Origin: Antedon mediterranea | Lineage: Eukaryota; Animalia; Echinodermata | NCBI RefSeq assembly: GCF_964355755.1 | Contig: NC_092673.1 | Coordinates: 20,767,648-20,831,647 of the forward strand | DNA length: 64,000 bases | Direction: 5' to 3' | Shown: piece after piece, positions 33,179 through 64,000 of the stretch | Layout: each line of letters opens with the position of its first letter | Position numbering within the stretch: position 1 is the first letter of the stretch | Made by a program: the position numbers and the translations under genes | Notes under the pieces: generated by a model | Seen by the model: only the letters and a program-made list of their open reading frames with translations | Databases searched by the model: none | What the model was told of the DNA's origin: nothing

Positions 33179-36100
33179 ATGAAATTTACAATACTATTCT
33201 TTATAGCGTTTTATCTTATTGAGACTGTACGTTGCAGTTTGGATCCATCATTGCAAGTGTCATTTGCGCGCGTGTTTCCGAATTATCGTCGTTTAAAACG
33301 AGATGTCGTTACGCTTTCGCCGTCGGCTTATACTGAAGAGGATAAGAAGGAAATGTTGGAGTCTCATAATGAATTCAGAAGAAATGTACAACCACTTGCT
33401 GCTGATATGAATTTACTAGTAAGTAACATTTATTTTATTGCAGCACTTTGGGACAAGGAATACATTATATTAATGATTATTATAATGACTAGGCCTATAT
33501 TACCAAAAATTAGCCTAATGATTAATTATTAAATAAAAAAGAGCCGGTATGATTGACCTAGACTCCATGGTACCGGTAGTACAGTCAACTCTACCAATAC
33601 TGGGCACTGTTGGGCTGGCCTATGTGTCTGGTTTTCTGTAAAGTCTGATATTCAGAATGTGTTTTAAATGTTGAAAATGAATTTGGGACCTTTTGAACCT
33701 CATGAATTAAACACCTGGGTTTGGAAGAGCTGGGTTTTAGAGAATCCGTTAGGGAAATGTGACTGTACTCATTTTCTAATGTTGATATTGGTTAGGGCCT
33801 GTGTTATGAAACGGTAACGAAACGGAAACAACAATAGGTATGAAGCAGTCTAATGCAAATACAGTTCTTTTTCAAGGAAGAGAACATACCGACATATATT
33901 GTATTATTTAATACACAGTGTAGGCTTACATCATTATTGGGTTAATATATAATCCACATGACAAATATGTGAGTACACGGTTTAAATCTATGCTAATATT
34001 AAATAAGAATATTACCATGGAGGCAATATGCTATAACCAACAAACGTGGATAAACCAACCAACAATAATTGATGTTTCTAGCATTATTACTGTCGTATTT
34101 ATTTGAATAAACACCTCCTTCGAATAAACTCCCCCTCCCTCCAAGAGAATATTATTTGGAATAGACGCCCCTAACCCTCAACCCCCAATAAACGCCCGGG
34201 CCGGGTGTTTATTTATTTCCTTGAATTTTCGCCACATGCATTATACACAAGTATTACAACACAATTCTATTAACATTTATTATTTGACATGATTTACAAT
34301 TTACCAAATACTTGTATACAATTTTTACTATATTTTATCACTTCTTGATATTATATATTGTGTATTTTTTTATATCTAGGTGTATTTGTTTTAATACTAT
34401 ATTACTTCCAAAAAAATAAACGCTTCCACAATTTGTATACAATTTTTACTGTATTTTATCACTTCCTAATATTATATGTTGTGTATTTTTTTATATCTAA
34501 GGTGATATTTATTTTAATACTATATTACATCAAGAGTTGGATAGCCGAGTGGTTAGGACACTTGACTGTCATACAGATAGACCCGTGTTCAATTCCCGAC
34601 AACTCCCAGCCCACTCAGCTGTAAATGAGTACCTGGTTGAAAATACTAGGGAGAAAAAAGGCGGCGTGGAGAGGAACTGGCCACCCTACCACATAATGCC
34701 GAGGCTTAGTACAATGAGCTCCTAACAGCTCATTCCCCTACGTTCAGAGAACACGGGACTCACCTTTATTACATCAAAAAAATAAAGGTTTCCCCCGAAT
34801 AAACCCTCCCTCAAATAAACGCCCCATCCAAAAAACCCTGGTAAACAAATACGAATAAATACGGTATTAAAATGTTTATATATCATAAAATATATGTAAA
34901 CATTACTTATTCAGGCATTAAATGGAACAATTAAGTGTATTTTAGCATCATCATCATTCTACTAATATTATGATAGTAACTCGAATTCTTGTTTGCTTTC
35001 TTGGGCAACGTTGTAATGTATTGATTACCTGTTATCCTTTCTTTTTCTTACATTCCATCTTTTGTGTAAACGTAGTACGGTGTTATTAAAACAATATTAT
35101 AGTAGCCTAGTAATGCTGTAATTGATACCGTGCTATTATTTGAAACATCAATATTTGATTTATTATTAATATTCATTACGAAAACGTATACTAGTTTTAA
35201 GACCTATCCACTACCAATACTGGTGTGTCAAGATTATTTATTTTAGAATAGTTCAAACCATGATTCACTGATAGCCTCAATTCTGTGCTTTTCCATTTTT
35301 GGTTGACATTTCAATGTCACATATTAGTTATTCACTTTGACCAAAAATTGGATCGGGAAAAAAATTGCTTACCTGAAAAAACTGTCAAAACTGTTTAAAT
35401 AAAAAAATAATTAAATTGGCTGCCAGCCAATGGGGTTTTGGTTGAAATTAACTGTTTATTTTGTCATTTTTTATAAATGAAAACAATATTTGTTCGGTTT
35501 TTTTTTATTAACTTATTTAATGGCCTATTGAAAGTCTGATTTTATTATAATTTTTCATATTTTTTGGGGACAATATATCTTTATTGCTATATAAAATAAT
35601 ATATATTTTAACATTTTTAGAGGTAACGCCGCGTATTGGACGCGCGTGTTGAAGACATGGACGCGCGCGTGCTAAAGACATTGCCAGTTCATGTGTACGC
35701 GCGCGTCAACTTTATGTTGTTATTTGTGGTTGACAAGACACGAATATTTCGTCATTTAAAAACCCTGAGTTATTTTAAAAACTGGAAGGTCCCTAGTCTG
35801 TAGAGGTCATAAATAACAATACATTGGATTAATAATTAAGTATCTGGAAGAAGGTTACCTTGTTAAGTATTGTTCAAAGTTTGGAAGTTGTCAATGTTAT
35901 CCCATTCTAATTACAGATACAAAACACAGATTAGTAAGCTTTAAACAAAACTGTCCTTTATATTTGATTTAAGATATTAGTAAGGTATTTTCTAGCGGTA
36001 TTAGTACTGTACCATTGCGACATTGAGCTATTTTAGGCTATTTTTTTTTAAATTATGGCGTACCGTATTTATTCGAATTAAGGATTACTGACGTATTTAT

Positions 36101-39100
36101 TCGAATAAACACCCCGCTTACAATAAAAGGGTTCCTCCAAGAGAACATCGTTTGGAATAAATGTCCCCTCAAATAAACGCCCCGGGGTCCTATCTTTTCC
36201 TCAAATAAACGCCCCGGGGTCCTATCTTTTCCTCAAGTAAACGTCCCGCCACTTTGCATATCACATAACCAATTTATATTTGTAGTATAATTCATTGACT
36301 TCCATGATCCACAATTGACGAAGTATTTTGATATATTTTATCACTTCCTAATATTAATTGTGTTGTATTTTTTTCATATTTAGGGAGAATTTATTTGATT
36401 GTACATGTTACCCTGATATTACACCAACAAAAATTAAACGCCTCCCTGAATAAACGCCTCCATCGAATAAACGCCCTCTAAAAACACTCATGAACAATAA
36501 ACACCCAGGGACGTTTATTCGAATAGATACGGTACTTTTTTATTATTATAAAAGACAATACTGTTTTTAGTACAGATACTTAAAAACAAAGACTAACTAT
36601 TTATTGGTACTTCGTAAAAATAAAATAGGATCTAACAATAATGTTAATTTACTCAAGGTAAATAATGTAAGGAGCAGTACAAGGTAATTCCGATTCAAGA
36701 ACAAATAATACATCGAGTACTGTAATATATGGTCTGATTATTTTCTTTTATTTGCTTTCATTTCAAATGATTAAATAAACAAAAATGTGTTAATATTGAG
36801 TATATGACTACTTGAATAATTACACATGATCGTGTTTGCCGCTCTGGGCCGTGATTTAAGTTTGAACCCCGCAGGTATCTTGTTTGTGGTTGTGACGTTG
36901 TAAAACTTTATATTTAGCTCTGTCTACACTATCAAACATTATGAGACAACAAAATGTGATGTTCCCATATATGGACATGGTGATGTCATATCACTACTAC
37001 CATATTTGGTCATATCACTACCATACTTGGGCACATCACACTTTTTTTTTATAGTGTAGAAAGAGCTTGAGGTTTATGTTATGTGGCGAAAAGTGTAACA
37101 TCACATAGTATAAAATAAAGTGTAAAAATATGTTCATAATTAATTTGATTTTAGACATGGAATGACCAGTTGGCTGATTCGGCTCAGTCGTGGGCGGAGC
37201 AGTGCATATGGGATCACGGCCAAGTGGAATTTGAAAACCAACAGTACAGCCCCATGGGCCAAAATCTATGGAGGGGCGGCAGAAAAGTGTAAGCCATACA
37301 TAGAGGAAGCAAATCCATTAGTGAAATGAAAAATATCAACTTTTAAACATTTAAATGCGCGACTACAGTGCAGTTCATGTATCAACAATTGTACGCGCAC
37401 GTTTACTGTACGCATGCGCAAATAGTTTCAATCACGACACTCACAGAATTAGGATTGTTGAGATGATGTGTATGTGTAAACTTATCCCAATACAAGTCTG
37501 TATTTATTTCTAGGCTTTTCGATGTTTTTCTGAAAGCTCAAGTAGTACACGTATGAAACGCCATATGTCAAAACTTATGTAGCGCTCACACACTATTTCT
37601 TTGTTGTAATATCTATCTATCAGTTTATAAGTGTTTGATGATGACGTCATGATTAATGTTGATTTTATCATTCAGTTCTGTAAGCGCAGTGAATGCTTGG
37701 CACAATGAGTATAAATATTATCATTATAACAATGATACTTGTGATCACGTGTGCGGCCACTACACTCAGGTAAGTGTTTATCAACCATCGTATCACGTAT
37801 TGACAATAAATAATGTGATACAATAGAGGAAATCTGTTATGGGCTACACTATCAAACTTTATGTGAAAAAAAATGTGATTTGCCCATAGACACGATGATG
37901 TCATATCACTACCATTATTTGGGCATATCACTACCATATTTGGGTATATCACTACCATATTTGGGCACATTACACTTTTTTGTCAAACTAGTTTGATAGT
38001 GTAGACAGAGCTTCATGCCTGGTTTCCACTAGAGAAGAACGCAAGGACGTAGTAAACGCAACACGTGGTTTGACCAATCACAAACTGTGGGTTTGCCATT
38101 GGCGTTGCGCTTACCGTCTTGCGTTGCGTCATAGTGACGCATGTACGCTTGAGAGACCTCTCCCAATTGAATGTCCGATTAGGTCAGGTTTGGTTTAGGA
38201 GCTAGGCACTGCAATAATAACGGGATTAACTCTTAAAATAGGTTGTTTGGGGCGACACTAAAGAAGTTGGCTGTGGATATTTTTCTTGTCCGGACGGAAA
38301 TACTATTGTTGCTTGTAACTATGGACCAGCGTAAGTTTATGGAGTTGTTTTTTTTACACTGATAATAACGCGTGCCGAATATTGCTATTGACACGTTATA
38401 TACACGTATAGTCACGATGTGACCAACTACCGATCAGAATTCATTTTTTTATCATCATCATTATACTGCACTGTCCTTTTAATACCCACACGATACATTT
38501 TTATTGGTAGTGGCAATTATAATCGAAAACCGTACATTGAAGGGCCTAGCTGTTCAGCATGTGATAAACCTGGTTACTGCTACGACGACAAACTTTGCTG
38601 TAAGTCACAATTATATTATATTAGCAGGAGTATGAGGACGTAAAAAGCGCGCCGTTTTCGAATGAGCGACATTAAACGTGTTTATGTTCGATGCGTAACT
38701 ATTTGTTTAATCTATATTTCAGCTACAACGTGTCATGACCAAAGCGTTGTGTCCGGATCATGTAGTAAGTTCATTGATGTATTGTGTTAGATAAAGCTTT
38801 TCCCACTAGAAAAACGGTCGACGCGGGTGACGTGACGTCGCAAGAAAATTTGTGATTCAAGCTTGGTTTCCACTAAGACACAACGCAAGGACGTAAGATG
38901 CAACGCAGGTGAATTTACCAATCAAAAGCAATGGATTATTCGAAATATCGCTTGTGATTGGTCAATTCCTTGTGTTGCGACTTACGTCTTTGCGTTGTGT
39001 CCTAGTGGGAACCAAGCTTTACGCATAATACATTCGTGCGTTACGTCACAAGACGCGATGTGTGAGATATAACTGAAAGAGTGAACCCGTATGCGTTTTA

Positions 39101-41880
39101 GAGTGTTTATCAATTAATATTCGCAGAATGTTCATATGCATGTCAGAACTGCGGAGTTTTAAATGAAGAAGAATGTACCTGCTCTTGTCAGGCTGGTTGG
39201 ACTGGCGCCCAGTGTGGAGGTAAAATACTATAATTCTTCGGACTAGTGAACAAGTATAGGTAAAGTCAGCATTAATTTGAATAAGGGAATCCTAAATGAT
39301 TGATTTTTGGCGTAGGTATGTGGGCAGGGGATGGGGTAGGCCTAGGCGACCACAAACTATTGTAATAATGTTCCATGCTACACCATGTTCTTTGATAGAC
39401 TTGGTTACTGACAACTGTTTTTTTATAGATGTATGTGCAGACACCAGTACACGTTGTAATAACGGCTGGTATAGGGCTCAGTGTGAAGGATATTCGTACG
39501 TCAGAACTGGCTGCCCTGCTATGTGCGGTATATGTGGTAAGATCAGTCATATTTGGTACTTTTAAGTTAAAAAGTAATGTACTTTATTTGCTATATTTAC
39601 CACCCGATTGTCAGTGCTGTGTCTCCTCATATGACAATATTTGTCCATAAGCAAATTCGGTGATGCAGCATCTCATCAGTGGTGCCGGTATCATCAGGGC
39701 ATTAAGAGACTCTTCCCTGGTATAATGATGGAGGTAAGGATTGGGCTAGGTCTATAATACAAACATGAGCTTCTATATCAAGGAATTGCCAGACACACAG
39801 TCCAGATATTCATGGGCTAAAATGTCTTATTAGTATTTATTTCTTTACTGTAGAAATACAGACAGCCGAAAACGCTTTTGACTGCCCATGTAATGGTAAA
39901 ACGTGTAGAAATGGAGGGCAATTAAATACAGATTCTTGTATTTGCACTTGTACTGAAGGATATACCGGAGATGTTTGTGGTGAGTTCAGTGGAATTTTAA
40001 TTTTTTGTAATAACCATTATTTATCTGCGAAAAATTAGTCTAATGAATTAGACCTATTAATAATTTGCTATTTAGGCCTACAATCTCATTGGGTAAAATA
40101 AATATTCATTTTATCCATGCTTGGACGTAACGCAAGGGCGAACGCGCAACGCAAGAAGACCAATTATGTTTGGTTTCCACTAGGACGCAACGCAAGGACG
40201 TAAACGCAACGCAAGCTTGTTGACCAATCACAGGCGACTGTTCGAATAATCCATCGCTTGAGATTGGTCAAATCACTTTGCGTTGCATTACGTCCTTGCG
40301 TTGCGTCCTACTGGAAAATAAGTTTCACAAGCAACAACTGAGATGATCCATTGTGTCATGATTGGTCAAAGTACTTGCTTTGCGGTTACGTCTTTGCGTT
40401 GCGTCCAAATGGAAACCAAGCTTGCAATACCAATTTTGAATGTAAACAATTTATATAAAAATCATGCATATTATTTTACATATTAAAATGGCATCACCGC
40501 TCTGCATTGCACGCTTTTATCAATATCATAGAATCACCGGTGCCAAGCCTATGTGATGGTGTTGTATGCGAGAACAACGGAGTGTTAGTTAACTCGACCT
40601 GTATCTGCCAGTGCCCTGATGGGTTTGAGGGGGCTACATGCGGTAAGTTCAATCAAATTTGGAGTCAAAATACTAGAGTGTACACGATGAGAATGATTGT
40701 TATGAGAACATTGCCATTGGTGACTCGGGTAATGCTTTTAAAATTCAGCATTAGCTTTTGATTTATAATTTCATTTTTACATTTTCCTTTTCATTAATCT
40801 AATTTGTTTTCGTTTTTAAAAAACTGATGCATGAAAGCAATTACTGCAGGCCTACATTAAAAGCACGTTTTTTAAATAATGCGCATTGTATTATAATGGT
40901 TCAGTCAACTCTCACAATACGGTACCAAACACCATTGGACTAGCCTATGTCTGTTTTTTTCCTTGAAATTTCAAGAAATTCTTGTATTATGATTGTTTTT
41001 TTAATGTTAAATGGGATTTGGGATCTTTTCAATCCAGTGCCTTTGAGTGAGTTTCCGGTTTTCAGAGAGTCTGGTATTGGGAGAGTCGACTGTAAAATTT
41101 TGTAAAACTGATTCTGTTTATTTTTAAATACATTGTGCTTGCTAAAGTATTTTGCTTATGTTATTTTGCTTGTTGCTTTGCTTACATAATACAATAGAAA
41201 ATGTCATCTTAACATCCACTACTCATGACGTCACGGAAGAAAGTAAAACAACGACAACAACTCCAATAAAAACCACACAGACAATTACAGAAAAGACAAC
41301 TGAAGTTAACGACGTAACGGAAAACCCCCACACGACATCTCCTCCTCCACCACCACCGATTTGCGAGCTTAAATGCCCCTTCGGATATGTTTTGGATACC
41401 AATGTCTGTGACTGTATTGAAAATATCTATGGTAAGTGTGATGAGAATAATAGAAAAGAGTCGCGACACCATAAGTATTGCAGAATGATTGTAACATTCC
41501 TTGAATTACGCATCGGAATCGACGAGACGATGATGTCGCATCTTCGTAATGAGCAGACGTCATCTGAACGTCGACATCATCGCAAGGAAAATACGCGTGT
41601 ACGTCATCATCATGGTCGAAAATCGGCCAATATCGTTCAGGTTACTACTACTATCGCTACTACTACTAAGCCTGATGCGGGCAGGCCAGACTTTAGTAAC
41701 CCGAAGAGAAATGGGAACATGGGAAATACTAACAAGGGAAACAGCAAGCGGGGAACTACTATCGCTACTACTACTAAGCCTGATGCGGGCAGGCCAGACT
41801 TTAGTAACCCGAAGAGAAATGGGAACATGGGAAATACTAACACGGGAAACAGCAAGCGGGGAAATAGTAAACGGTCTTAA
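33179..41880 (+). CDS. Secreted CAP/SCP (CRISP/PI16-like) protein with EGF-like and ShKT modules and Thr-rich/repetitive C-terminus, 11 exons
   Basis: Exons 33179-33418, 37155-37288, 37676-37769, 38242-38330, 38511-38599, 38723-38764, 39127-39219, 39429-39536, 39854-39979, 40532-40642, 41198-41880, phase-consistent. Signal peptide, HNEFRR..P.AADM..WN, GQNL, CGHYTQVVW, VGCG, VACNYGPAGNY; ShKT CADTSTRC..C..CPAMCGIC; EGF C.N.G.L...C.C.C..GYTG..C. Confidence 0.9.
33582..33765. mobile_element. MITE family C (TA target, Tc1/mariner-type); second copy 40902-41092, partial ~47370-47525
   Basis: TA-cagtcaactct(a/c)ccaatac ... gactg-TA, shared internal aatttgggaccttttgaacctca. Confidence 0.7.
34095..34864. 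mobile_element. MITE family E copy with internal ~120-bp duplication and a nested SINE
   Basis: cgtatttatttgaataaac ... cgaataaatacgg-TA; aataaacgccc subterminal repeats. Confidence 0.7.
34534..34766 (+). mobile_element. tRNA-derived SINE (Nin/Meta-domain-like) with 11-bp TSD
   Basis: A box tagccgagtgg, B box gttcaattcc, central cccactcagctgtaaatgagtacctgg; direct repeat tattacatcaa at 34523-34533 and 34767-34777. Confidence 0.85.
36063..36532. mobile_element. MITE family E (TA-CCGTATTT termini; pogo/Tc2-like)
   Basis: TA-ccgtatttattcgaat ... attcgaatagatacgg-TA with multiple aataaacgccc repeats. Confidence 0.8.
36916..37067. mobile_element. MITE family A copy
   Basis: agctctgtctacactat ... 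atagtgtagaaagagct. Confidence 0.8.
37843..38012. mobile_element. MITE family A copy
   Basis: ctacactatcaaact ... agtttgatagtgtagacagagct. Confidence 0.75.
38860..39018. mobile_element. MITE family B (Harbinger-like); related copies ~38017-38150, ~40119-40422 (nested), 59468-59646
   Basis: TIR agcttggtttccacta ... tagtgggaaccaagct with internal acgcaacgcaagg / ccaatca / tgattgg palindromic layout. Confidence 0.8.
41647..41862 (+). repeat. 108-bp (36-aa) coding tandem duplication in the CAP-protein last exon
   Basis: Two copies of TTIATTTKPDAGRPDFSNPKRNGNMGNTN(K/T)GNSKRG differing by one base. Confidence 0.95.
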
Positions 41881-42390
41881 AATGAATGTGCACATAATGT
41901 AGCACGAAGGTGGTGGGATTAAAATTTGTCCTGATTGATAACATTTACATGACGTATACTACGGGGTGTGCTTGCGTTTACTACAAAGCACTGTCGAAAT
42001 AGAATAGTTGGTTGGTGGTTCAAAAATTAACGTACTGCCTATAATATTGATATAATAACTTTTAACCTAATACCTTTGGTTTCCACTAATACGAAACACA
42101 AGTAATTTTAAAAGATGTTCATCATTCCGGGATATCCGTATATAATTCAAGACCGCAATACTATTTCCATCATATAAATTGGCTTCACGTTTCCATTGGT
42201 ATAAAGCACATTCATTGTTGTTAAATGCACAGACATAATACTTTTTTCCTTTTTTTTTTTTTTTGAGCTGTGAAGTTTTTATTATGTAAGAGAATTAATA
42301 CAAAATCTTTCATTTTTAGGAGTTGGATCTGCTAACATACCAACAAGTTCTTTAATGTGCATCGTCCTACCACTTATTCTAACCTGTATA

Positions 42391-44561: not shown

Positions 44562-45713
44562 TTACCAACTTAACTCATATAACTTACTCCCTAAGCCAAC
44601 AAGACAGTCATGATATTCCAACTTTTCATAGTTGTTTTTTGGAACTTGACTAAGGCCATATATGGCACCCCACCAGGCCCCAGCAAGGCTACCGGTTGCA
44701 TTTCCCGCACCACCGTGAAACACGGCATTCTTGCAGATCTCATCCCAGCTACTTTCAGATGACAGAATTGCATCATACCTACAAAATGATGACATTTTCA
44801 AATAATATTTTATTAACAAAAGCATATTGAATTAATATTAAAATATTTTATGAAAAAAAGATACCTGGAACAATACCAATACTTACGCTATGATTGTTGC
44901 GTCGTAACCATGGGCACCAATAATCCTTGATCCTGAAAACTTCTGAAACAGGTTAATTCTTTCTCGAACTCCATATTTTGTTGGGAATTTTGGTTTGCTT
45001 TCACCATCTGCTATTTGTCTTACTTTAAGGTACTCTTTCCATTTTCCTTCAAACTCTGACCACGCTTCTAGGTTCTCATCAACAGAATGTCCAGTTCCCA
45101 CTACGTACTCCAGTGCTCTTGGAAGTACCGCCACTAATCTTGCTCCCCACTCACGCGGCTCAATGCCACGAACTGCATATGACGTAAACAACGCTGCAGT
45201 TAGGGCGCCAAGATACGCAGATGGGTGATGATGAGTAATTCGGCCACTTTCAATCGCCACACCTATCAACTTTGATAGATAATTCGGTTTGCAGTATACT
45301 AGCCCAATACACATAGCACGAATGGCTGCAGAGTTGTCCTTTGCGAGATTATCGTATGGTATCCTATAGCTGTAAATTTCACGTGGTCTTATCTTTCCCG
45401 TCCAATCCAGGAGCATTGTTCCTGGAATTCTGTCGTCCATGGCATCCATCCCAGCTAAATATTGCACAGCGAACTCATTTAAGAGAGTATCCCCAGTTTT
45501 TGTAGTACTTAGAGCTAAAGCGGATGCAATGTGAAGAACTGTGCCCTCACTTGCCTTCCATTTTGGAGGCTCAATAGTAATGGTACTTAAGCCACCCAGA
45601 GATTCAACATCACCTAGTATTTTAGCTGAGGAGTTTTCCTTCTGGTAGTGAAATCCAAGAGTATCCGCAGAGCTAGCAAGAAGAAAAGAAGCTTGGAAGG
45701 CTTCCAGTGACAT
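44562..45713 (-). CDS. ADP-ribosylarginine hydrolase family protein (ARH1/ADPRHL1-like), predicted catalytically inactive; 2 exons, 347 aa
   Basis: Exons 45713-44887 and 44778-44562 (GC|gtaagt...tag|G); motifs AAIRAMCIGL, ESGRITHHHPSAYLG, AYDAIL, AVFHGG, WWG..YG...VP..NYEKLEY. Confidence 0.9.
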
Positions 45714-46385
45714 TATTATTACTCACCTCATCCAAAAACACGATCTGGTCTTAATATAATATTCGTACATATTAAATTATATTATTAATATAGCAGAAAT
45801 TGATCATCTTAAGCACAATCTTAGACGTCGTGTGCTTTGCTGTTATGGAAACAAAGGTCAGAAGTTAATCGTCATGCTTCACTAAATATGATTAGAAACA
45901 TGTTACGTTCTTCCACGTCACATTTCTAGAGTCCATGGCGAAGATGGTAAGAAAAACTACTTTAAATTTATAAATTTCACAATTATTATTGTCTATTATT
46001 ATAATAAATAACTCGCAATAATTACAGGTATTATAGCATGCGTCTGTATTATTGATAACGCTTTCTTTTATATTAATATTTGACAATAGAATCTAGGCCA
46101 GCTGAAACTCACCGATTTACAAGGCACACAACCCGGTTGGTGGCCTAGATTGTGGTAGAAAGCGTAAGGAAGTTTGGGCCTACTAGGCCTAGGGGTAATG
46201 TTAATTGAAATGTATAGAATAGTGATTTTTCCAACCCTAATTGTATTAATAATATTTGTTGTGTTTATTATTTGACTTGCAGTTCATGCTAAAAAAAATG
46301 AAAATTCAGAAAAAATGATAATTAAAAGAGTGTGGTTGTAAATTAATTTTGATCATCACTACTTTACCAAGTTACCACCAAAACC

Positions 46386-49300: not shown

Positions 49301-51504
49301 TTTGTCTCGATTACTGTTACAAATATTTGATTTATGTACAATTAACCAAATATTATATTTAAAATTCATGCCTGTATCTGAGCTTTAATATTAAATTAGC
49401 TTTAAAATCATTTAAAATTTCAAACTTATTTAGTCTTAAGGACCCTGTCCCTGATGTGTTCCGCTCTCGTGTTGTATATAAATTTAAATGTATGGGATGT
49501 AATTCCATGTATATTGGTGAAACCAATAGATGGTTATATATGTGGGTGCGTGAACGTTTCTGGGACAAGGCTTCTCACATTTTTCAACATCTGCAGGATT
49601 CAGAACGGTGTAAGGCCAGCGCTAAGGCAGAATGCTTCACCGTTCTGGATCCTGCAGATTCCGCTTTCAAACTTAAGGTCAAGGAAGCCCTCCACATCTC
49701 GTGGAGTAAACCTTCCTTGAACAAACAAATCTATAACTTAGGCATCACACTTGCCATATGATTGTTTGGTGTCTACATTCCTTGTTGTTTTATTATGCTA
49801 ATTACTTACTTATTTACATACAACATGTCCTATTGGTATATAAGCACTCTAGGCGTTGTTTACTGTTCTGATGATGAGAATAGTTTCTCGAAACATGTCA
49901 CATTTACATTTTAAGGCAGTTTGCCTTTTTATTAAATGCCTCGCTATAGTCATCTTAACTAATAAGAAGCAATTGTGAATTTTATTTATTGATGATTAAA
50001 AGTAGAAATTAGATTGAATATGATAGTATTGTCATGTCATTTTATTAGACCAAGACCAGACTATTTTTGGCGATGTTTTCCTGACGGCAAAATGACCTCT
50101 GACCTGCATTGTACCGGAGATTTAGATACTGTAATGGAAGGAAGGAAAAGTTTTCCCAGTGGACATTCATCTTGTAAGTTTTATATCACAAATTAATTCT
50201 GATGATGAGAATAGTTTTCTCGAAACATGTCACAGTATTTTAAGGCAGTTTGCCTATTTATCAAATGACTCACAATTTTGATTTTGACTCAAAAGTTTGG
50301 TGGTATCATACATAATTTATCTCACCAATTTATAATAATTAGCATATTCGTTTGTTGAAGTATACATTTAATTTATTCCTATAGAAGTAAAAAATTAATG
50401 TATTTTTTACCAACAATGAAATTGAAAGTTAAATTTGAATATTATTTGAATTACTTTCTATTTTGTTTTTCAGTTTCCTTTTGCGGTTTAACATTTTGTG
50501 CTTTATACATGATGGGTAAATTTCACATATTTGAGAGTCAAGGTCGTGGGTCAGCGCTTAAATTATGCATCAGTGGAAGTCCGTTATTTGCCTCTTTGAT
50601 GATAGCACTCTCCAGGACGGCAGACTACCATCATCATTGGCAAGGTAATAATTCATTTTTTTTGGTTCTCTTGAATCTGTTTTTTTTATCGGATATTATA
50701 GATACTTGAGCTCCTGTGAATTCTGTTCCAACAAACTCTCTTTGGGAGCTTCAGAGTGCCGGAGAACAGAGCGCTGAAAATGGTTCCTCTGCATCATCTT
50801 TTTTTTTTTGTGGTTATCTAAAGGCCAACTCAGACAGCATCGTACGACGAGGCCCAATGAAACGTCTGGACTCGTCAGTGTTGTCTAAGTTGAATCCCGA
50901 TGATAAGATAGCGTTTTAGGTTGTCGGGAAAACATTAACTGTTTCCCGACGAGATGACTTGCTGGCCTCGTTGTACGGCCATGTCTGAATTGGCCTTTAG
51001 AATTTTTTATGGGATTTTTCGTATAACACATTTGTGTTAGGCACTATAAAAGACACCCCTTATTATTAATTGCCTTATTTGTAATAGTAGAAATAGAACC
51101 ACTCATTTCAGACCACTCCACTTTTCTTTGAAATGAGTTAGGATGCCATTATAAGTGTTTTAAAGCTTTTTTAGTTTCTAATGTACCATCACAAAACTAT
51201 ATTTTTAACCATGCCCCTCTCGGCCCAGTAAATATTTGTATACTGTACCATAAAAAAACTAATATTTATATATATAATAACTCATTTTGTGTGTTTACTT
51301 TCAGATGTTCTTGTTGGGTCGTTGCTGGGTTTAAGTATTGCGTTCATGTGCTATCGTCAATATTACCCGTTCCTCACCCATGTGTCATGTGACAAGCCGT
51401 ATGCGATGCTTACGCCATATTCGGAATTACCACGCACTGATTCTCGAGTTAGTTTGAACTATAGTGAAAGAAAAGATATTGAGGCTGCTATTCACATGAT
51501 ATAG
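46386..51504 (+). CDS. PLPP5: Phospholipid phosphatase 4/5 (PPAPDC1-type PAP2 family), 7 exons, 279 aa
   Basis: Exons 46386-46471, 47090-47195, 47590-47677, 48021-48084, 50049-50173, 50474-50644, 51305-51504; [18 protein letters not shown]1 KNIYGRPRP, C2 SFPSGHSS, C3 [13 protein letters not shown]. Confidence 0.9.
46956..47049. mobile_element. MITE family A, internally deleted copy
   Basis: agctatgtctgcactatca..atatggtagt..acagagct. Confidence 0.6.
48157..48230 (+). mobile_element. tRNA-derived SINE head (degenerate)
   Basis: A box tagcttggtgg and B box ggttcaagtc with tRNA-like spacing. Confidence 0.45.
48634..49959 (+). mobile_element. Penelope-like element fragment (GIY-YIG endonuclease end + pLTR/3'UTR) with inverted tail copy at its 5' end
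   Basis: VVYKFKC.GC...YIGETNR...EALHI...KPSLNKQ (49456-49761); 48657-48717 is reverse-complementary to 49897-49961; direct repeat taataagaagca at 48622-48633 and 49960-49971. Confidence 0.8.
49861..49905 (+). ncRNA. Minimal type-I hammerhead ribozyme motif (PLE-derived), copy 1
   Basis: CTGATGA(49868)-t-gagaa/tagt/ttctc-GAAA-catg-TC; palindromic stem III acatgt; predicted cleavage after 49899. Confidence 0.7.
50199..50237 (+). ncRNA. Minimal type-I hammerhead ribozyme motif (PLE-derived), copy 2; PLE tail continues to ~50310
   Basis: CTGATGA-t-gagaa/tagtt/ttctc-GAAA-catg-TC-acagta; predicted cleavage after 50231. Confidence 0.65.
50822..50996. mobile_element. Palindromic MITE (Harbinger-like, TAA/TTA flanks)
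   Basis: aggccaactcagaca..cgtacgacgaggcc ... ggcctcgttgtacg..tgtctgaattggcct. Confidence 0.7.
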
Positions 51505-54824: not shown

Positions 54825-57800
54825 CTATACAACATCTTGAGCGCAATTAGACCCTTCCCCCACTGTTACTCGATGCGTCTGTTTTCGTTGTCTTGCGCCT
54901 CCCATGTCACGCGTGTCAATTTTTTTATGTTTCATTTGTATTAATGCACTTGCAAGGACTAAACGTGTCTGACCATACGGTACTTCGCAATTATCCGGAA
55001 GAGGAATTTGCATAAATAACGATGCCACTGCAGCTTTCTGTTCCGAACATGGTTCGTAAGCTATTACATTTGGGTACGACTGTTGACAAAAACAAAATAA
55101 ACATTATACGTGTAGGAACATTTCTTAATATTCACTATTCTAGGTCAGATATTTTATTCAAATTGTATATTATTTTTAGGAGGGCATTTATTCAAGGCAT
55201 GCGTTTATACAGTGAAGGCATTCCAAATGATGTTCTATGGGGGAAGGGGGAGGGTTTTGTTTATTCAAAGCAGGTTTTAAGGTTTTAATTCGAATAAATA
55301 TTTATTTATTTAGATAAATTTTGAGTTTGAATAGTCAATGGTCACAGGACGTTAGTGGTTCCAGATTGGTCTGAAACTAAAGTCACTTAGATAAATAATA
55401 AAAGATAAAAGATAAATCACATTACCTTTTTGCCGGACGGAAGAAGATCTGGTGGCCTATTACGTTCAAGTTCAACATTTATTGACGCAACCGGCCTGCT
55501 GGCCATCATGCGGAGTTCCACTACACGACGCTGATAAGAAACAATACAGGACTTCAGTAATGATTTCATTAATACATTCAATATATAATTATATAAACAT
55601 AATACTTTGGTTTTGGGAACTGCTGAAAAATATATTATTTGCCAATAACTTGTTTTTGTTTAAGTTTATCATTATTTTATTCATACAAATATTTTTTCTC
55701 TTTTTGTTTTGTTTGTTTATGGATGTACTATCCAAAATATTGAAAATTAATAAATAAATACCAATACTTTATGTTACTATTCATCTGACTAAATTGTTAA
55801 ATTTTCATAAATATTTTATAATATACTATGGTAACGGTTATTAATTAATAATATAATATTATTAAATATAATGTTCATACACAAACTATGGTTCGTGGAA
55901 TTTAAACTTAAAATTTGATAATTATTAATTCATAAAACACTGTAATATAAATTGCAAATAAAAAGTAGGAAAGTTTCACAATGCATATTGGCTTCATGCA
56001 TACAGTATTTAAATTTATATATTTGCTTTGTATTGTCAAATAGCAAATGACTCGCCATATACAGAATAAGAGAATAAATTTAAGTTGCTAAACTTCTCAT
56101 TAGAATTACTGCAGTAGCAATTTTTGGAAAAATCTTGGTATCAACCGATAACCAGGGCTTGAACCAGGACTATAATTTCACCAAGGCAAGGCAACCAAGC
56201 TAGTGTGCAACCAGGGTCATTACAGGTCACTACATACCAGGGCAGCTCCCAGTACTTGATAGGGTCTGTTTTATTATTTTCAGTTTTTTAACTATCTGAA
56301 TAGGATATTTAGTATAAATATTATCAAGCCATACTCATGCATGTAAACTGTTATAGTAGTAATTAAAAATAGTGTATTGTGTAATTATTAATATGTAAAG
56401 TAATACAACAATAGTATATTAGTTGTGGTGCAGTGAAGATTAACAAATGAAATCAAACAAATCTGTGTGACGTCTATGAAGAAGAAGCCCCATCACCTCT
56501 ATTGTCATTTAAAAACAAGAAAAAAATAGCGTAAATTAAAAGCAAGAAAAAGATAACAAGAAGAAAATGTCCATCACCTCTAGTGTAATTTTAAAAAAGA
56601 ATAAGATATAATATATATACTGTATGACTGTTAAAGCCGATGTTTGTATTTTTTGGTTATTTTTAGGTTGCCACTCCTAAACTGTAAAACAATCTTCCTA
56701 ATTTAATTCAATCGAAGATGTCAACACCCTTTTAAAATCTCATCTTTTCAATCTGTTTTCTCTCCCATCTCAATTTTTATTTCAAGCGCTTTTGGAAAAT
56801 CTGCTGATAGGTAAAAGCGCTATATAAATTTGACATAATTAACACAAATATGTGTACATACATTTAAACTATAACATAAATACTATCCACACATAATTTT
56901 CAATTTCATTTGGAACCAATTGCAGGCTGTCTTCAAAACATATTTGCATGCTCACAAACGTGATACAGACATAGGTATTTAATTTTGATTGTTCAACTGA
57001 CCAAAGTCTTCAAATAATTAAATACATGTTGCCCTGGTTGTTTAATGGCCAGGAATCATAAATTACATTTTAATTGATTTTATTAATAATTAGGGTTTGT
57101 GTATTTTATCGATTTAATAGAATTCAAGATATGATTTAGTTTAATTTCTAATACTGTATCAATAAATTTTATATATGAATATTTATTATTTAATTTCAAA
57201 ATGTGGAAGTGGAGAGAGGCACATTATGTCAACAAATAATTGTTGGTCCTCTCCGGGGTCCTCTCTCCCTCACAGTTGTCATATAATGCTTTGTATTTCT
57301 TTTCTTTTTTATTGTGTGTTCTGTATATGTTTTATATGGACAGTTTGTCCGAAATAAAGTTGAATTGAATTGAATAGTTAATGTTGTAACTTTGTATTTA
57401 AGCCATTTTCCAAATAGATTCGATCCAAGATTTTGGTCAGATTTCTTGGTTATTCCTCTTTACTTACCCGTCTCTGTTTTATCGAGTCAATCTTCTCTTT
57501 GATTTTGAAGGTGACCACAAAGATGAGTAGAAAGAGGAAAAAGCAAGAGATGAACGCGACGAAGAACTCTAAAATGTTCAGATGGACAAACTGATAGACA
57601 GTCACCTAAAAAAAGCGAAGCAGAAAAGAGTGCTATATGTTAGTTCATGCAAAAATAAAACATGCTAGGTCGGGCACGCATTCTAGGAGTGGAAAGGGCC
57701 AGCTTGCGTTAGACTGGGCTAGCCTTGTTTACTTACCTGCACCCAAATTCGGCTATAGATTAGACATTTGATTTTCCAACCGCCCAAAAACATGATGAAG

Positions 57801-60800
57801 GTAATAAGAAAGGTGATAAGGAACTGCAAAATGATATTCCACATCCCGTATGGCCGTAACACAACCTGTGAGAAGACAGTGTTCAGTCGGCGGCATTCTT
57901 TTGTTTTTTGCAGGGAGGAGGGACCGACCACTTTCCACCCCGTGTTAGAGTTAGTGAGGGTAGTGAAGAATAGGGTTAAGTGCTGAGAACCTAAGAAAAG
58001 CTTAAAATGCATCTGAAATAGAGAAGAAACTGTTAACAAATTCTTAAGGTTAATTTAGCATTGTGAAAAGACAAACCAAGTCACTCGGTCAACATTCCAA
58101 GGTCTTCCGTGACCTCTGACCTTACCTGTCTAAGCTGCCGCGCCTCCCATAAGTCCCTGATTTTAAGGACAGAGAGGAAAAAGAGTAGCGATATCACAAA
58201 ACAACAAAACGAAGCGCTTAAGAACACCATGATATTAAGGTCAGTGCCCTGGATTGTAGTGACCTGATTTTGAGAAAAAAATACAACATAATCGTGCCTT
58301 GCATTAGTGTGTGCTTGGGTAAGCAGGTATCAGCCGACCTTACCTGTCGAAGTCTATACCTATAGACAAACTGACGTACTCGCCAACCGACAGTCATCAT
58401 GAACAGCATTAGAATCAGACTGCTCACAAATATAAGCACAATTTCAAGAATGATACGCAAAAAATCGTTGTGGTGTTTCAGTGTAACCTGCATGCAGAAA
58501 ACAAGCATGTGACAACAGGAATTAACAGAAGCAGAAACACCGAGAAATTTGTCACAGCCAACGGATACTATGTGAGAGTAGTTCAGTGCAATTCTCTATC
58601 CATTGATCTACATTTTTTTACCTGTGACGCTATATGTAATTTCAATAGGGTACATAATCCAAGCAAACCAGTAAAGAAAAGTATAAGAGCGAACACTGCA
58701 CTCATAAAGTACATAATATAGGCTGGAAGTGAAGAACTGGGAATGTACTCATCTGTAAATTGCATCTGAAATCATGAAAACTAAATAAATGAGTCTCCCT
58801 TTATGAGATTTTTCTCTTAAACTTTAACCTACAGTATTCGATATCTGTTCAGTATTTAAAACTGTGTAAAAAGTAATGATTAATGGATAGTGAATGTTCA
58901 CTATTAACTTATAGAATGTTTCCAGGTGTCACTCTGAAAAGGAATATTTAACATTATAGCACACTGTCTACACTATCAAACTTAAGTTTGACAAAAGAAG
59001 TGTAAGGTGCCCAAATATGGTAGTGATATGATGTCATCATTTCTATTTATTGGCACATCACATAAAGTTTGATAATGCAGACAGAGCTTTAGTTAGCTCG
59101 GTTTACTACACTGTATAGGGGATAAAATGTCATTTTCACTACAAGAAAAAACATAATGGCAGTGTTGGCTTAACAGCGTTAAAAAGTATTTTTGTAGTTG
59201 GTTTTATTGTAGACATTCAGGACATTTTGTTTGCACTATGTGTCCCAGAATCAATGGTGCCCCTAACTGTGCCAAATCCAGAAACTGGCATGGTTGCATG
59301 AGGTTTCACAAAGTTTGTGAGGATACCCACATTTTATACTCTACTAATTCTTATTGAAACAGACAAAAATTCCCTATAATTGGAGGAATTAAACAACATA
59401 TCGTGACATTAAAACATAAAAATAATTAAACTATTTCTGTCCTAGATAGTACTTTGCTCTAATCTAATGCTTGGTTCCCACTAGCGACACAACATAACGC
59501 AACCTACGCAACTTAAGAAAATGCCCTTTCCATAATCGTGTTTGCCTCGCCTCTGTGAAATCGAACCTTTTTTCCCACTTGTGATTATGTAACATAGCAC
59601 TTTGCATTGATATGTTGTTGTGTTGTGTCCTAGTGGGAACCAAGCTTTAGTGCCAACATGAACAATTCAATTATCCCAATACATAGAAAAAGATACATAA
59701 AAAAAATATATACAATACATACCTCAAATGAGTAAGGTGTCGTGAAGTTATATAGATATATATAAAATGTAGTATTGGCATCTTCAGTAAAGTCAAATTC
59801 ATTGTGAGAGAACTTAGTACTGTACTTTGACCGGACATGCATGTCCGTTACTAGCGCTGTCTCTGACATTAAAAAATCTTAAAGAAAAAGATGAAGACTT
59901 GTAAATTCACATGAAAATAATTTTAAAATGCTTTGTTGTGGCAACTAAATGTAAACGTTTCCCAACATGCAACCTGCAAGCTCCGCTAACTTTGTAAACT
60001 TTGTGTGCAAGAATTACAAAAAATTATGTTTTTAATTAAGCCAAACAATAAGAATTGTTCATCGCAATATGCTATTTATCACCCAATATGTAAGTTTACA
60101 CATGCCTAGCTAGGCCTAGTCTCTATGCCCACTTGCATTCCATCCATACGGTAATTTGTTTTTATGTGAGCGGTGTATGTTGCGTGTGCGACACATGCGT
60201 TTTGTGTTCTACACTTTCCATCGAATCGAAATCAAAACAAACAAATACGTTAATACTGTTTGCTGAACTACGCTGAGTAAAATGTTGACGTCATTCGTTA
60301 AAGTCAACGTTTACGTGCGAAAGCTCTTTAATTACAGGCAGACAGTATAAAACTGTACTCTACCCTGTAGCAATGATTTGAATACACAGAATAGCTTACT
60401 TGTTGAATAAGTGATGTTCATATAAACTGAAGTGGGTACTTCCAGGATAAAGTCAATATCTCTATTATTTTTACTTGGTTCCACTAACATGTTTATTTTT
60501 GTATAGTAGCTATCCTCTGCTTTTGATAGATTGAAATTATACCGAAAATTCATCTCGAGTTCATCTAGTCAAAAAAAAATTACATTTAACATTATATATA
60601 ATATTGGTGACATACTTAAGTGTACTTTATACAGTGCTAAATAATTCAGGTACAGCCAGAAGAAACATCTGACCAATTAACTTAGCTCCATGACGCAATG
60701 CTACAAAAATATTTGTATAAACATTTTAGGCTACATTCATAACGTAATATTAAATTACACGAAACAAAGTGGTGTTGTTAGGCAGGTTCATGGAATGTAC

Positions 60801-63800
60801 CATTATCTGACAGGGGTGTTTCATAAATTTTTATATATTCGAGTTGTAGCTCTCTTCTCACAGAGAATATGCCAATGTCAGTTTATCCAGGTAAGCTAGG
60901 CACGAAATAGACTAGAGAAGCTAGGAAGTGTGTGCCAGTTTGTTGGAACAAGGAACAAGTTTACTTACAGTAACAGGTTCCACCGTCAGATGGGTCACCT
61001 CTATATTTTGCTTTAGTATCACATCTGAGTGTAAATAAGATAATACAACAATAACTCACAATTGTTTTAATTTAGACACCTGTACTAAAGGGACACCTGT
61101 ACTAAGGGGACACTTGTACTAAGGGGACACCTGTACTAAAGGGACACCTGTACTAAGGGGACACCAGTACTAAGGGGACACCTATACTAAGGGGACACCT
61201 GTACTAAGGGGACACCAGTACTAAGGGGACACCTAAAGCAAGGTGACACCTGTACTAAGGGGACACCAGTACTAAGGGGACACCTGTACTAAGGGGACAC
61301 CTGTACTAAGGGGACACCTAAAGCAAGGTGACACCAAGGTGACACCTGTACTAAGGGGACACCAGTACTAAGGGGACACCAGTACTAAGGGGACACCTAT
61401 AGCAAGGGGACACCTGTACTAAGGGGATACCAGTACTAAGGGGACACCTGTACTAAGGGGACACCAGTACTAAGGGGACACCTAAAGCAAGGTGACACCT
61501 GTACTAAGGGGACACCAGTACTAAGGGGACATCTATAGCAAAGGGACACCAGTACTAAGGGGACACCTATAGCAAGGGGACACCTGTACTAAGGGGACAC
61601 CTATAGCAAGGGGACACCTGTACTAAGGGGACACCTGTACTAAGGGGACACCTATAGCAAGGGGACACCTGTACTAAGGGGACACCTGTACTAAGGGGAC
61701 ACCTATAGCAAGGGGACACCTGTACTAAGGGGACACCTATAGCAAGGTGACACCTGTACTAAGGGGACACCAGTACTAAGGGGACACCTATAGCAAGGGG
61801 ACACCAGTACTAAGGGGACACCTATAGCAAGGGGACACCTGTACTAAGGGGACACCTGTACTAAGGGGACAGCTGTACTAAGGGGACACCTGTACTAAGG
61901 GGACACCTATAGAAAGGGGACACCTGTACTAAGGGGACACCTGTACTAATGGGACAGCTGTACAAATGGGACACCTGTACTAAAGGGGCTCTTGTGAAAC
62001 AAATGAAAAGAAATAAATGTGTCAACACTATGGCCAATACTTAAAGAGGATACCCGTAGGTGTTACAATGATTCTTTTTTTTCATGAACACAATAAAGGC
62101 GAGCATGAAATTTGGTTTCCTGATGCTTAAATACACAATGTTGTATATTTACAGCCAGACAAAGGTTAACATATTTACGGGAAAAAAACGTGTAAAACTG
62201 CCAAAATTTATTTATTTTCTATTCAAATATATAAGACTATTTAAAATGTACTTACATGTCACACATATCTCCAATAATCCCTTTTGTTGTACAATAGCAA
62301 GCACCGGAGTAAATGTCACAGACTTCAGCATTCTCATTGCATACACATGGTTCACATTGGCCACCATTCTCTGGATTGCCAAAGAACCCACTAGTGCACA
62401 TTTCACAATGTTCACCTGCAACATTTTGAAAATGTTTTGTAATAAAAAATAAATACAAAGAATGTATATAAAGCTCTGTCTACACTATCAAACTAGTTTG
62501 ACAAAAGAAAGTGCGAATTGCCTAAATATGGTAGTGATATGTTTAAATATGGTAGTAATATGACATCATTGTGTCGTGGGCACATCTCATTTTTGTCACA
62601 TAAAGTTTGATAGTGTAGACTCAGCTTAAGGAATTAAGGGTAAAACTACCAAGTGTAAGAATTGGTATATTCACAGTAATACCAAAGATCCAATTATCAA
62701 ATTATTCTTAAGATCATTATCTATTTTCAGTTTAAAAAAAAAAATTAGTTTCTATTCCCCCTGTAAACAACCCCTCTCCCCACCCCCCCCCCCCACCCCA
62801 TTACTATCTAACTAACTAAATTTGATTTGGTGGATTGGACAACATGTTTATACTATACCTGTTGTATTATCTGTACAGTTAAGACATACACTCTTGTTTA
62901 CACACTCACTGTGCCCATTACACTGACAAGCTACAAGAAAATAAAACATTTGTTTTAAATGCCAGAGACTTTTAATTTGAAGTAACTTTGCATCAGGTAT
63001 ATAATTGCGTCAGAGTCGGGCAAACAGCTGACCATTTATGACAAAGACTTGTTATCAAGTGATTCAATAAGTATTCATTATTCCAAAGAACAAATAATAA
63101 ATTTAGAGACTTTTAATTTGAAGTAACGTGCATCAGGGAGCTATTATATAATTGGGCAAACATTATTTCAAAGAACAAATAATAGATTTATAACAACTTA
63201 CCAGGACAACCAACAAAGTTCCATGAATTTGAAGTACACATTGAGGTGTTGAGAAGCATACTTGTACCAGAGAAATCAAGTGGTCCTGTAAAGCCTCCCT
63301 CCATGCACATACCGGTACCGGTACCAGAACCATCATCACACCAACCGCATGATGGACTCATCTGACAATCGGTACATGATTGGTATCCTGAACAAGTTGG
63401 AGCTGTAATAAGATTTTTCTATGGTGATTTTTTTTCTTTTTGGCAATAACACATTGACAACAAACCTTTTTACGATTTAAGCCTATAAAAGAACAATACT
63501 AGAGATGGAAGAGATGGGATGGAAGAGAATGGGATGGAAGTGATTGGGATGGCAGAGAATGGGATGGCAGAGAATGGGATGGAAGCGATTGTGATGGAAG
63601 AGATTGGATGGAAGAATTTGGATGGAAGAGATGGGATAGATGAGATAGGATGGAAGAATTGATAAAACAAAATACCATGTCTTAGCAAGTACTTACGTGG
63701 ACATGCTCCTTTGATGTTATGCCATTCCATACATAAACCGTATGGGAATGATGTAACATAGGTGTTGGATTCCACACATTGCATTTGATTATTACACCAC

Positions 63801-63876
63801 ATGCAATCTTCATCCTCAGAACAGCTCTCACAGGACTGGTAATCCTGACATGTTGCTGGGCACTGGGTTGGAGGTG
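54825..63876 (-). CDS. ATRN: Attractin / attractin-like protein, 3' part (PSI, laminin-EGF, juxtamembrane, TM, cytoplasmic tail); 5' exons outside window
   Basis: Exons 63876-63697, 63402-63202, 62930-62859, 62415-62256, 61024-60969, 60564-60400, 59877-59723, [alternative TM exon], 55530-55426, 55079-54825. Motifs SFPYGLCMEW, CGWC, CPACQCNGHS, CYCTTKG, GTCYY, MASRP, IAYEPC..KAAV.SLF, GQ..LVLASAL. Confidence 0.92.
57468..57605 (-). CDS. ATRN: Attractin alternative TM exon F (46 aa; most canonical)
   Basis: tttttag|VTVYQFVHLNILEFFVAFISCFFLFLLIFVVTFKIKEKIDSIKQRR|gtaagt; 138 nt, phase 0/0. Confidence 0.9.
57737..57865 (-). CDS. ATRN: Attractin alternative TM exon E (43 aa)
   Basis: tcttctcacag|VVLRPYGMWNIILQFLITFLITFIMFLGGWKIKCLIYSRIWVQ|gtaagt; 129 nt, phase 0/0. 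Confidence 0.8.
57866..58012 (-). other. Degenerate attractin TM-exon copy D / in-frame 5' extension of exon E
   Basis: ctatttcag|MHFKLFLGSQHLTLFFTTLTNSNTGWKVV...; keeps acceptor and GWKV motif but has a short hydrophobic core and no donor; open in frame into exon E. Confidence 0.45.
58126..58263 (-). CDS. ATRN: Attractin alternative TM exon C (46 aa)
   Basis: aaatcag|VTTIQGTDLNIMVFLSASFCCFVISLLFFLSVLKIRDLWEARQLRQ|gtaagg; 138 nt, phase 0/0. Confidence 0.85.
58344..58487 (-). CDS. ATRN: Attractin alternative TM exon B (48 aa)
   Basis: catgcag|VTLKHHNDFLRIILEIVLIFVSSLILMLFMMTVGWRVRQFVYRYRLRQ|gtaagg; 144 nt, phase 0/0. Confidence 0.85.
58622..58765 (-). CDS. ATRN: Attractin alternative TM exon A (48 aa; most diverged)
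   Basis: atttcag|MQFTDEYIPSSSLPAYIMYFMSAVFALILFFTGLLGLCTLLKLHIASQ|gtaaaa; 144 nt, phase 0/0. Confidence 0.7.
58958..59088. mobile_element. MITE family A copy
   Basis: ctgtctacactatcaaact ... agtttgataatgcagacagagct. Confidence 0.75.
61075..61988. repeat. 17-bp minisatellite, ~50+ copies, in attractin intron
   Basis: Unit aaggggacacctgtact with variants ccagtact, cctatagc, cctaaagcaaggtg. Confidence 0.95.
62472..62626. mobile_element. MITE family A copy with TAA target-site duplication
   Basis: TAA-agctctgtctacactatcaaact ... agtttgatagtgtagactcagct-TAA. Confidence 0.85.
63503..63662. repeat. Purine-rich 14-15-bp degenerate repeat in attractin intron
   Basis: gatggaagagaatgg / gatggcagagaatgg units. 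Confidence 0.8.
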
Positions 63877-64000
63877 CTGAAATAACACACAAAGTAGGTA
63901 TTACATTTCAATAACGCTTTCTTCTATTCATATACAATACATACAAATATTGAGTCCTGCATGCTTCACCGGAGTTCATTGTCTATACTGTACAACATAC

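Follow-up and report, generated by a model that had tools for sequence, protein, structure and literature searches.

Tandem alternative transmembrane exons in attractin of the feather star Antedon mediterranea and other echinoderms

The window analysed here is a stretch of 64,000 nucleotides (nt) from the feather star Antedon mediterranea (contig NC_092673.1, positions 20,767,648 to 20,831,647), numbered below from its first letter. Its minus strand carries the 3′ half of a gene identified by its sequence as crinoid attractin, which in mammals and flies is known as a partner of MGRN1, a ubiquitin ligase that clears receptors from the cell surface, and within this gene lies a tandem array of five exons, A, B, C, E and F, each of which encodes a transmembrane (TM) helix. 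The closest matches are attractin-like proteins of two feather stars, Antedon mediterranea and Anneissia japonica, and the exons flanking the array match the Pfam families PSI, EGF_LMN_ATRN and GBD_ATRN, domains that precede the membrane in attractin. The attractin-like protein P0001, which has precomputed Kelch families, aligns to the window by tblastn at 95-100% per exon, with the exception of one alignment that runs into an intron. The 5′ half of the gene, including the N-terminal CUB and Kelch region, is situated outside the window, past its end. The features of the locus are listed below, where joints are the spliced joints of an RNA run (run X1) and isoforms are RefSeq models.

60392..63877, minus strand: constitutive attractin exons lying upstream (two PSI, laminin-EGF, beginning of the stem), from tblastn with P0001 and Pfam
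59723..59877, minus strand: constitutive juxtamembrane (stem/GBD) exon, Pfam GBD_ATRN E=1e-9, whose phase-0 donor feeds the cassette
59539..59562, minus strand: element of the upstream intron, a predicted pairing partner of site beta on the far side of the cassette
58622..58765, minus strand: exon A, linker and TM helix, 144 nt, AG/GT, stop-free, 29/48 against Anneissia
58583..58621, minus strand: read-through of the exon A donor, a basic cluster and then a stop, with a layout matching Anneissia P0009 (isoform X6)
58344..58487, minus strand: exon B, alternative TM exon, 144 nt, joints on both sides, Antedon isoform X1 48/48
58303..58309, minus strand: candidate branch point CACTAAT from a motif scan, 40 nt past the exon B donor
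58245..58266, minus strand: exon C acceptor and the first 19 nt of the exon, 20/22 complementary to site alpha, 2 kb downstream
58126..58263, minus strand: exon C, alternative TM exon, 138 nt, joints on both sides, Antedon isoform X3 46/46
57737..57865, minus strand: exon E, alternative TM exon, 129 nt, Anneissia isoform X3 30/47
57468..57605, minus strand: exon F, alternative TM exon, 138 nt, joint from 59723, Antedon isoform X2 46/46
56223..56244, minus strand: site alpha, a GC-rich single-copy intron element and candidate downstream docking site, predicted to pair with the exon C acceptor
56174..56197, minus strand: site beta, predicted to pair with 59562-59539 or with the B-C branch-point region
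55426..55530, minus strand: constitutive MASRP exon, starting at 55530, motif MASRPV, joints from B and C
54825..55079, minus strand: last coding exon, cytoplasmic tail, joint 55426 to 55079, aligned to P0001 by tblastn

Composition of the array

A preliminary description of this DNA had placed five TM exons at these coordinates, and both a check of the sequence and a blind scan bear it out. All five exons lie on the minus strand, have AG and GT ends, are free of stops and are in phase 0-0; they follow a juxtamembrane exon that ends at 59723 with the residues ...NFTTPYSFE. The blind scan, for in-frame hydrophobic segments running from acceptor to donor between 59722 and 55531, returned A, B, C, E and F together with two 5′-extended versions of E, and nothing more. 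Applied to the rest of the window (117 kb, both strands), the same scan gave two clusters, or about 0.02 expected per 1.3 kb. The short introns and strong divergence described earlier were likewise recovered: the introns separating the five exons measure 134, 80, 260 and 131 nt, and paired exons share 4-16 residues out of 43-48. DNA contigs from three runs (X2-X4), which represent one sample and may be the window's own source, are unbroken across 57329-58993 with 1-3 differences, and run X1, from a separate study, spans the greater part of it as separate fragments. Homology among the array exons is indicated by their shared register and by DNA comparisons with the splice-site flanks included, in which 5 of the 10 pairs outscored at least 199 of 200 shuffles; it is least certain for exon A. 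Runs X1 and X3 share a pair of linked differences in exon A, at 58688 and 58690, which fall in a single codon and change Ala to Thr; for the other four exons none are listed.

A decayed sixth member of the array, exon “D” at 58012-57866, was considered and is unsupported (best 18/300 shuffles, five comparisons). This segment (57866-58012, minus strand) has an acceptor like the start of exon A and is stop-free and in frame with exon E, with a likeness to A that is not significant; as an extension it would bring exon E to 92 residues, near a 91-residue urchin exon.

Past the array, the MASRPF motif retains MASRP in Antedon with the final F replaced by V, and in Anneissia the F is replaced by C. 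Besides the MASRPV and MASRPC of crinoids, this “invariant” motif reads MARRPF in starfish and in one Holothuria protein (P0011, P0198, P0199, P0098). A sequence search of the PDB using the MASRP exon gave no match.

Splicing of the array and its possible control

Run X1 was mapped alone at 98% likeness and consists of the contigs of one run, taken to be RNA from its spliced joints. Such contigs can demonstrate that a joint exists but not that it is missing, and the RefSeq models may have been built partly on them. Six joints were recovered in all, every one GT..AG. Those that leave the juxtamembrane exon at 59723 lead to B at a depth of 21.5, to C at 9.5 and to F at 22.3; B and C are joined onward to 55530 (depths 16.3 and 9.7) and the MASRP exon continues from 55426 to 55079 (47.7). 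No joint between array exons and no skip of the whole array was seen in this run. Onward splicing of F to 55530 would account for an otherwise unexplained outflow of about 22 from the MASRP exon (47.7 minus 26) and is modelled in the RefSeq Antedon isoform X2. Use of F as a last exon was also considered, given a contig that passes the F donor, but is not claimed, the contig's depth of 21 being compatible with spliced F on top of the intron background. Of the Antedon RefSeq isoforms, X1 has B in this slot, X2 has F and X3 has C, and elsewhere the three are identical; A and E are absent from them.

Gene models from echinoderms at large extend this pattern. Among 44 isoform models (the singletons of Diadema and Holothuria, and fragments, set aside), 35 contain a single array exon, 3 contain two, 3 skip all and 3 end within an exon, and none holds more than two. 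Taken alone, the splicing of one exon per transcript is in little doubt. The preliminary description had proposed this for all five exons, and it stands for B, C and F from the joints and for B, C, E and F from the RefSeq isoforms; A is found only as a tail-less last exon. The joints it anticipated, from 59723 to each exon and from each exon to 55530, with few between exons, were recovered for B, C and F on the upstream side and for B and C on the downstream side. Exclusive use of F, which it had named as part of a refuting outcome, does not hold, with B and C spliced as well. Several points nonetheless limit this evidence: the RNA support is a single run, in the form of contigs and possibly not independent of RefSeq; that run has no joints for A or E, the depths of which equal the intron background of about 10.5; its listing lacks the joint from F to 55530; and the three double-inclusion and three skip-all models are either leak or model noise, such that exclusivity is leaky in the gene models.

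Exon A may depart from the interchangeability first claimed for it. Its donor, GTAAAA, is the weakest of the five, and its sole basic cluster, VKKCR, lies past that donor in the read-through frame, with a stop at 58585-58583. The only model that uses this exon, Anneissia isoform X6, continues past the donor through a cluster of lysines to a stop, so that its protein ends after the helix, with no MASRP tail. Exon A probably ends the transcript, or else it is an internal exon that is seldom used. As a last exon it would give a tail-less attractin, anchored in the membrane and devoid of the MGRN1-binding tail.

How the other exons are kept apart may involve the RNA itself. Since all five exons are multiples of three, double inclusion is not removable by frameshift and decay, a mechanism that is one of several for mutual exclusion and not obligatory. 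Another operates where a branch point too near a donor sterically hinders joining; the candidate branch point CACTAAT, located 40 nt from the B donor, would hinder the joining of B to C, and of no other pair. An inverted-repeat scan further revealed a 22-nt, 91% complementary pair between 58266-58245 at the exon C acceptor and 56244-56223 at site alpha, which is single-copy by depth in runs X2-X4. The predicted helix (-39.8 kcal/mol) was matched by 0/77 dock shuffles, and in one of three comparisons, a region-wide shuffle keeping local composition, by 0/300, with a shuffle maximum of 41.5 against the observed 42. This 22-nt RNA helix may mask exon C. As a weak prediction, the downstream docking element would mask the C acceptor, loop out C to F and favour B, in keeping with a docking site that serves exon B from downstream, of the kind described in several Dscam1 clusters (PMC6071210). 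Site beta is predicted to pair with 59562-59539 (-31.9 kcal/mol; score reached by 2/150 shuffles), and its pairing with the B-C branch-point region is weak and not significant alone. Counting against such control, no docking site common to at least three exons or selectors was found (39/60 and 48/60 nulls); local folding of the four array introns was no better than in shuffles (z -0.94 to 1.37). Upstream of the cassette, the same intron that precedes exon A also contains two short elements of high copy number, at 58964-59084 and 59464-59650, which are bounded by inverted repeats and resemble miniature inverted-repeat transposable elements.

Spread among echinoderms and other animals

The array was first described from this attractin alone and is in fact phylum-wide in echinoderms. 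In Anneissia, isoforms X2, X3, X4 and X5 carry B, E, F and C, respectively, and isoform X1 carries B plus F. Residues shared between the two feather stars number 29/48 in A, 40/48 in B, 45/46 in C, 30/47 in E and 40/46 in F, against 884/1163 (76%) over the whole protein. Relative to constitutive 46-residue windows, C, the most conserved of the five, stands above 99%, A above 18% and E above 26%. The helix of exon E is four residues shorter than that of its Anneissia orthologue, and exon F is, by similarity scores, the array member most like the single TM of other animals.

A swap of the whole TM exon at this slot was found in 8/8 multi-member echinoderm clusters examined, with 2-6 exons per species: three each in Antedon, Asterias amurensis, A. 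rubens, Patiria and Acanthaster, five in Anneissia, L. variegatus and Apostichopus, six in S. purpuratus and two in L. pictus (one double model). By gene models, the slot is therefore variable in four echinoderm classes, namely the feather stars, starfish, sea urchins and sea cucumbers. None of the 14 non-echinoderm clusters listed swaps the whole helix, two of these having been seen in part (15/42 and 15/21 members). Three of them, two from scallops and one from Lingula, swap the N-terminal half of the helix. This exchange of the linker and N-terminal TM half distinguishes the scallop pairs P0152/P0155, P0150/P0151 and P0065/P0349 and the Lingula pair P0246/P0322, and represents a parallel half-helix switch in two lophotrochozoan lines. 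Truncated or mis-predicted models from amphioxus, clam and spider break at the same half-helix point. An intron probably splits the helix in scallops, Lingula, amphioxus, clam and spiders, and its loss in the echinoderm line could have made a symmetric exon that was duplicable whole.

The age of the array was approached with a tree of 34/55 segments and 47 columns, from which long, terminal and redundant rows had been removed after a first tree. Exon B clusters with one type of starfish exon and one exon of L. variegatus (97/93), and clades of a single class are rejected (p-AU, from the approximately unbiased test, 0.017 for crinoid, 0.0015 for starfish and 0.001 for urchin). Because B groups across classes and single-class clades are rejected, at least two exon lineages are likely older than the crinoid split, which is Ordovician or older. 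As a limit on this dating, the tree is long-branched, spans only 47 columns and lost 21/55 rows after the first tree was seen; on other cross-class exon orthologies the two trees disagree.

Among the 150 matches listed from a 50%-representative search, none was a new variant of the whole TM, and the lone multi-TM match, P0354, consists of a repeat of identical segments and is apparently an artefact of assembly. No brittle-star proteins were recognised among the matches, and a metagenome scan for echinoderm TM exons gave 588 pattern matches and 0 confirmed.

Elsewhere in the window, a GC-rich tandem repeat occupies about 61200-62000 within an attractin intron. At 44565-45722 (minus strand) lies an open frame of 279 codons for an ADP-ribosylglycohydrolase (Pfam E=9e-23), with a probable continuation at 44831-44565, and an exon at 9652-10116 (minus strand) has a weak TGF-beta propeptide match (E=8e-4, under the curated cut-off) and probably belongs to a BMP-like gene. 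Long frames at 23303-24913 (plus strand) and 28467-31069 (minus strand) are presumably reverse transcriptase/endonuclease of long interspersed nuclear elements. Exon fragments at 33161-41900 (plus strand) resemble a CAP/SCP-type secreted protein, those at 50359-51501 (plus strand) a lipid phosphate phosphatase, and those at 18989-22689 (minus strand) an RNA-phosphatase-like gene with a His/Asp-rich repeat exon; no Pfam match confirming these three labels was obtained in the three pieces scanned.

What the exchange of helices may alter

Despite their divergence, the exons hold a fixed register. The distance from the first Lys or Arg after the helix to the exon end is 13 residues in 32/36 distinct internal exons and 14, 14, 14 and 16 in the rest, with exon A (7 residues) and the double, skip and terminal rows left out of this count. 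Echinoderm exon lengths span 43-91 residues, most being 45-48, with a variable linker and helix. Across all animals fetched, the same Lys or Arg stands 21 residues from the MASRP-type motif in 131/138 distinct attractin TM regions, a count that leaves out 16 proteins lacking the motif and 5 regions lacking a helix. The mammalian proteins ATRN, ATRNL1 and MEGF8 and Drosophila Distracted have the same layout of stem, TM, helix and MASRP with the same 21-residue spacing. In the structure that AlphaFold predicts for isoform B (alignment of 62 sequences, mean per-residue confidence, or pLDDT, 78), a strand at 995-1003 is followed by a single helix at 1006-1056. Hydrophobicity, spacing and this model helix, of low pLDDT, all fit a single TM helix that runs on as a cytoplasmic helix to MASRP.

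What such a helix could do is suggested by the paralogue MEGF8, where the TM helix and the solitary helix continuing it are reported to suspend MGRN1 beneath the membrane, activity is lost on longer deletions or an insertion in the helix, and MOSMO is contacted by both the linker and the TM (10.1101/2025.09.11.675358). Replacement of the MEGF8 TM with that of CD7 has been described as abolishing SMO ubiquitination while the chimera still reaches the surface (10.1101/2020.05.25.113944). Recruitment of MGRN1 to ubiquitinate receptors is known in mouse and human, and in the fly only association is, which in Distracted is MASRPF-dependent (10.1101/2020.05.25.113944; PMC8254101).

By analogy, the echinoderm swap would replace the linker, the membrane helix and the first half of the cytoplasmic helix on a constant ectodomain and tail. 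The chosen exon is predicted to complete the last strand of the stem domain and to continue as one helix to MASRP. Its constant length would keep MGRN1 at one depth under the membrane, and its variable surface, along with the linker, would pick the intramembrane partner, either a receptor substrate or a MOSMO-like co-adaptor. What differs between the exons is thus the portion concerned with recognition, and what they keep is the portion concerned with geometry, hence our partner-selection reading; because ubiquitination by way of MEGF8 needs both the TM helix and the helix length, retargeting of MGRN1 to other receptors is likely on this analogy. As a whole mechanism, tandem exons spliced singly into echinoderm attractin that likely change the membrane protein engaged by the attractin-MGRN1 ligase, it is on balance the account towards which we lean, modestly.

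Several considerations pull the other way. The TM requirement is known for MEGF8, a paralogue, rather than for attractin; pLDDT across the model helix is about 45-58; and the constant helix length may be partly explicable by common descent with indels limited to loops. Overexpressed MEGF8, ATRN and ATRNL1 are moreover reported all to target MC1R and MC4R, such that adaptors can be interchangeable (PMC12752501).

The exchange might alter where attractin resides, be it the cilium, the apical or basolateral surface, the endosome or the neurite, and leave its binding unchanged. A location effect is the one attributed to the two TM exons of Dscam1, and the attractin helices vary in length, cysteine content and juxtamembrane residues, the shortened helix of Antedon exon E being one case. 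Adaptor-dependent localisation has been raised as a possibility (PMC12752501). Most exons nevertheless keep to 45-48 residues with hydrophobic cores alike, and MEGF8 TM chimeras are reported to reach the surface normally with activity lost (10.1101/2020.05.25.113944), so that an effect on location in place of binding seems unlikely. That same loss of activity with a foreign TM would suit an on/off dial, in which one or two exons are active and the others hold MGRN1 or ligand without degradation, with exon A and skip-all forms as ligand decoys. The tail-less read-through models of Anneissia, S. purpuratus and L. variegatus and the skip-all models of the two Asterias species and Apostichopus are compatible with such a dial. 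Several distinct conserved helices would be superfluous for decoys, however, and both the retention of 45/46 residues in exon C, above 99% of constitutive windows, and the helix length kept by nearly all exons speak against it; a dial of this kind is distinctly improbable.

Alternatively, the duplicates could be equivalent and retained by splicing dosage or tissue subdivision, with A and E decaying in Antedon. These two are indeed the least conserved (60% and 64%), E bears a deletion and A the Ala/Thr polymorphism, and neither is spliced in run X1 or present in the Antedon RefSeq models. Equivalence fits poorly with paralogous exons that share 4-16 residues when orthologues share 29-45, with distinct exon types that persist across classes, and with the frame, length and splice sites that A and E keep in two genera, and we give it only a slim chance. 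Joint inclusion of several or all exons in a multi-pass protein, which the preliminary description had also named as a refuting outcome, would draw on every exon being a multiple of three and on the 3/44 models with two exons. With no exon-to-exon joints in run X1, 35/44 models single and none above two, it is largely refuted as the main form and very improbable at all; two helices would, in addition, leave the MASRP tail on the non-cytoplasmic face.

The same alternative exons already appear in RefSeq as automatic isoforms of echinoderm attractin-like models (XP_071947685-7 in Antedon mediterranea, XP_033102819-24 in Anneissia japonica, XP_030841395-400 in S. purpuratus), which are unnamed predictions with no interpretation attached. 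The earlier remark that no such cassette was known to have been described is accordingly upheld for the full-text literature searched, in which, most subscription papers and supplements aside, no account of alternative TM exons in attractin was found, and not for the databases. Tang et al. reportedly described, in 2000, secreted and membrane forms of human attractin from splicing near the anchor, which by title removes or keeps the anchor with no exchange of helix. Neither “splic” nor “invertebrate” occurs in the available main text of a review of MGRN1 (PMC13161197), and ATRN is absent from the main text of a survey of tandem-exon substitution in human genes (PMC8373072). Exon 17 of Dscam1 is likewise a set of tandem alternative exons, each encoding a TM helix (PMC8042237). 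Dscam1, however, is an adhesion receptor with two TM exons, whereas attractin is a ubiquitin-ligase adaptor with 3-6 in most echinoderm species, and its exon, unlike that of Dscam1, also carries half of a length-constrained cytoplasmic helix. Docking sites are known in several Dscam1 clusters, whereas the attractin array offers a candidate for exon B and none common to at least three exons was found. Vertebrates have separate paralogues, the fetched ATRN and ATRNL1 having one nearly invariant TM, whereas echinoderms have one gene with the TM spliced. The type of mechanism is already known from Dscam1 exon 17, then, and what is new is the family, the cluster size, the phylum-wide age and the fixed-register design.

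In its fullest and most tentative form, the proposal is that echinoderm attractin may be an ancient, expanding library of 3-6 helices that would aim MGRN1 at distinct receptor classes at a constant ligase depth, with a tail-less decoy besides and the choice steered by a long-range RNA helix; the slot would then be a recurrent specificity switch, since half of this helix also varies in scallops and Lingula. The specificity of MGRN1 for its substrates through transmembrane adaptors is named as unresolved in recent work (PMC12752501; PMC13161197). The cassette amounts to a natural helix-swap series, with one ectodomain and tail, 3-6 helices per species and about 36 distinct exons, and makes this question testable in urchin or starfish embryos and in cell lines. 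It could also inform the design of degraders that recognise receptors within the membrane, and it adds to a deuterostome phylum an unusually large TM-exon cluster common to the echinoderm classes.

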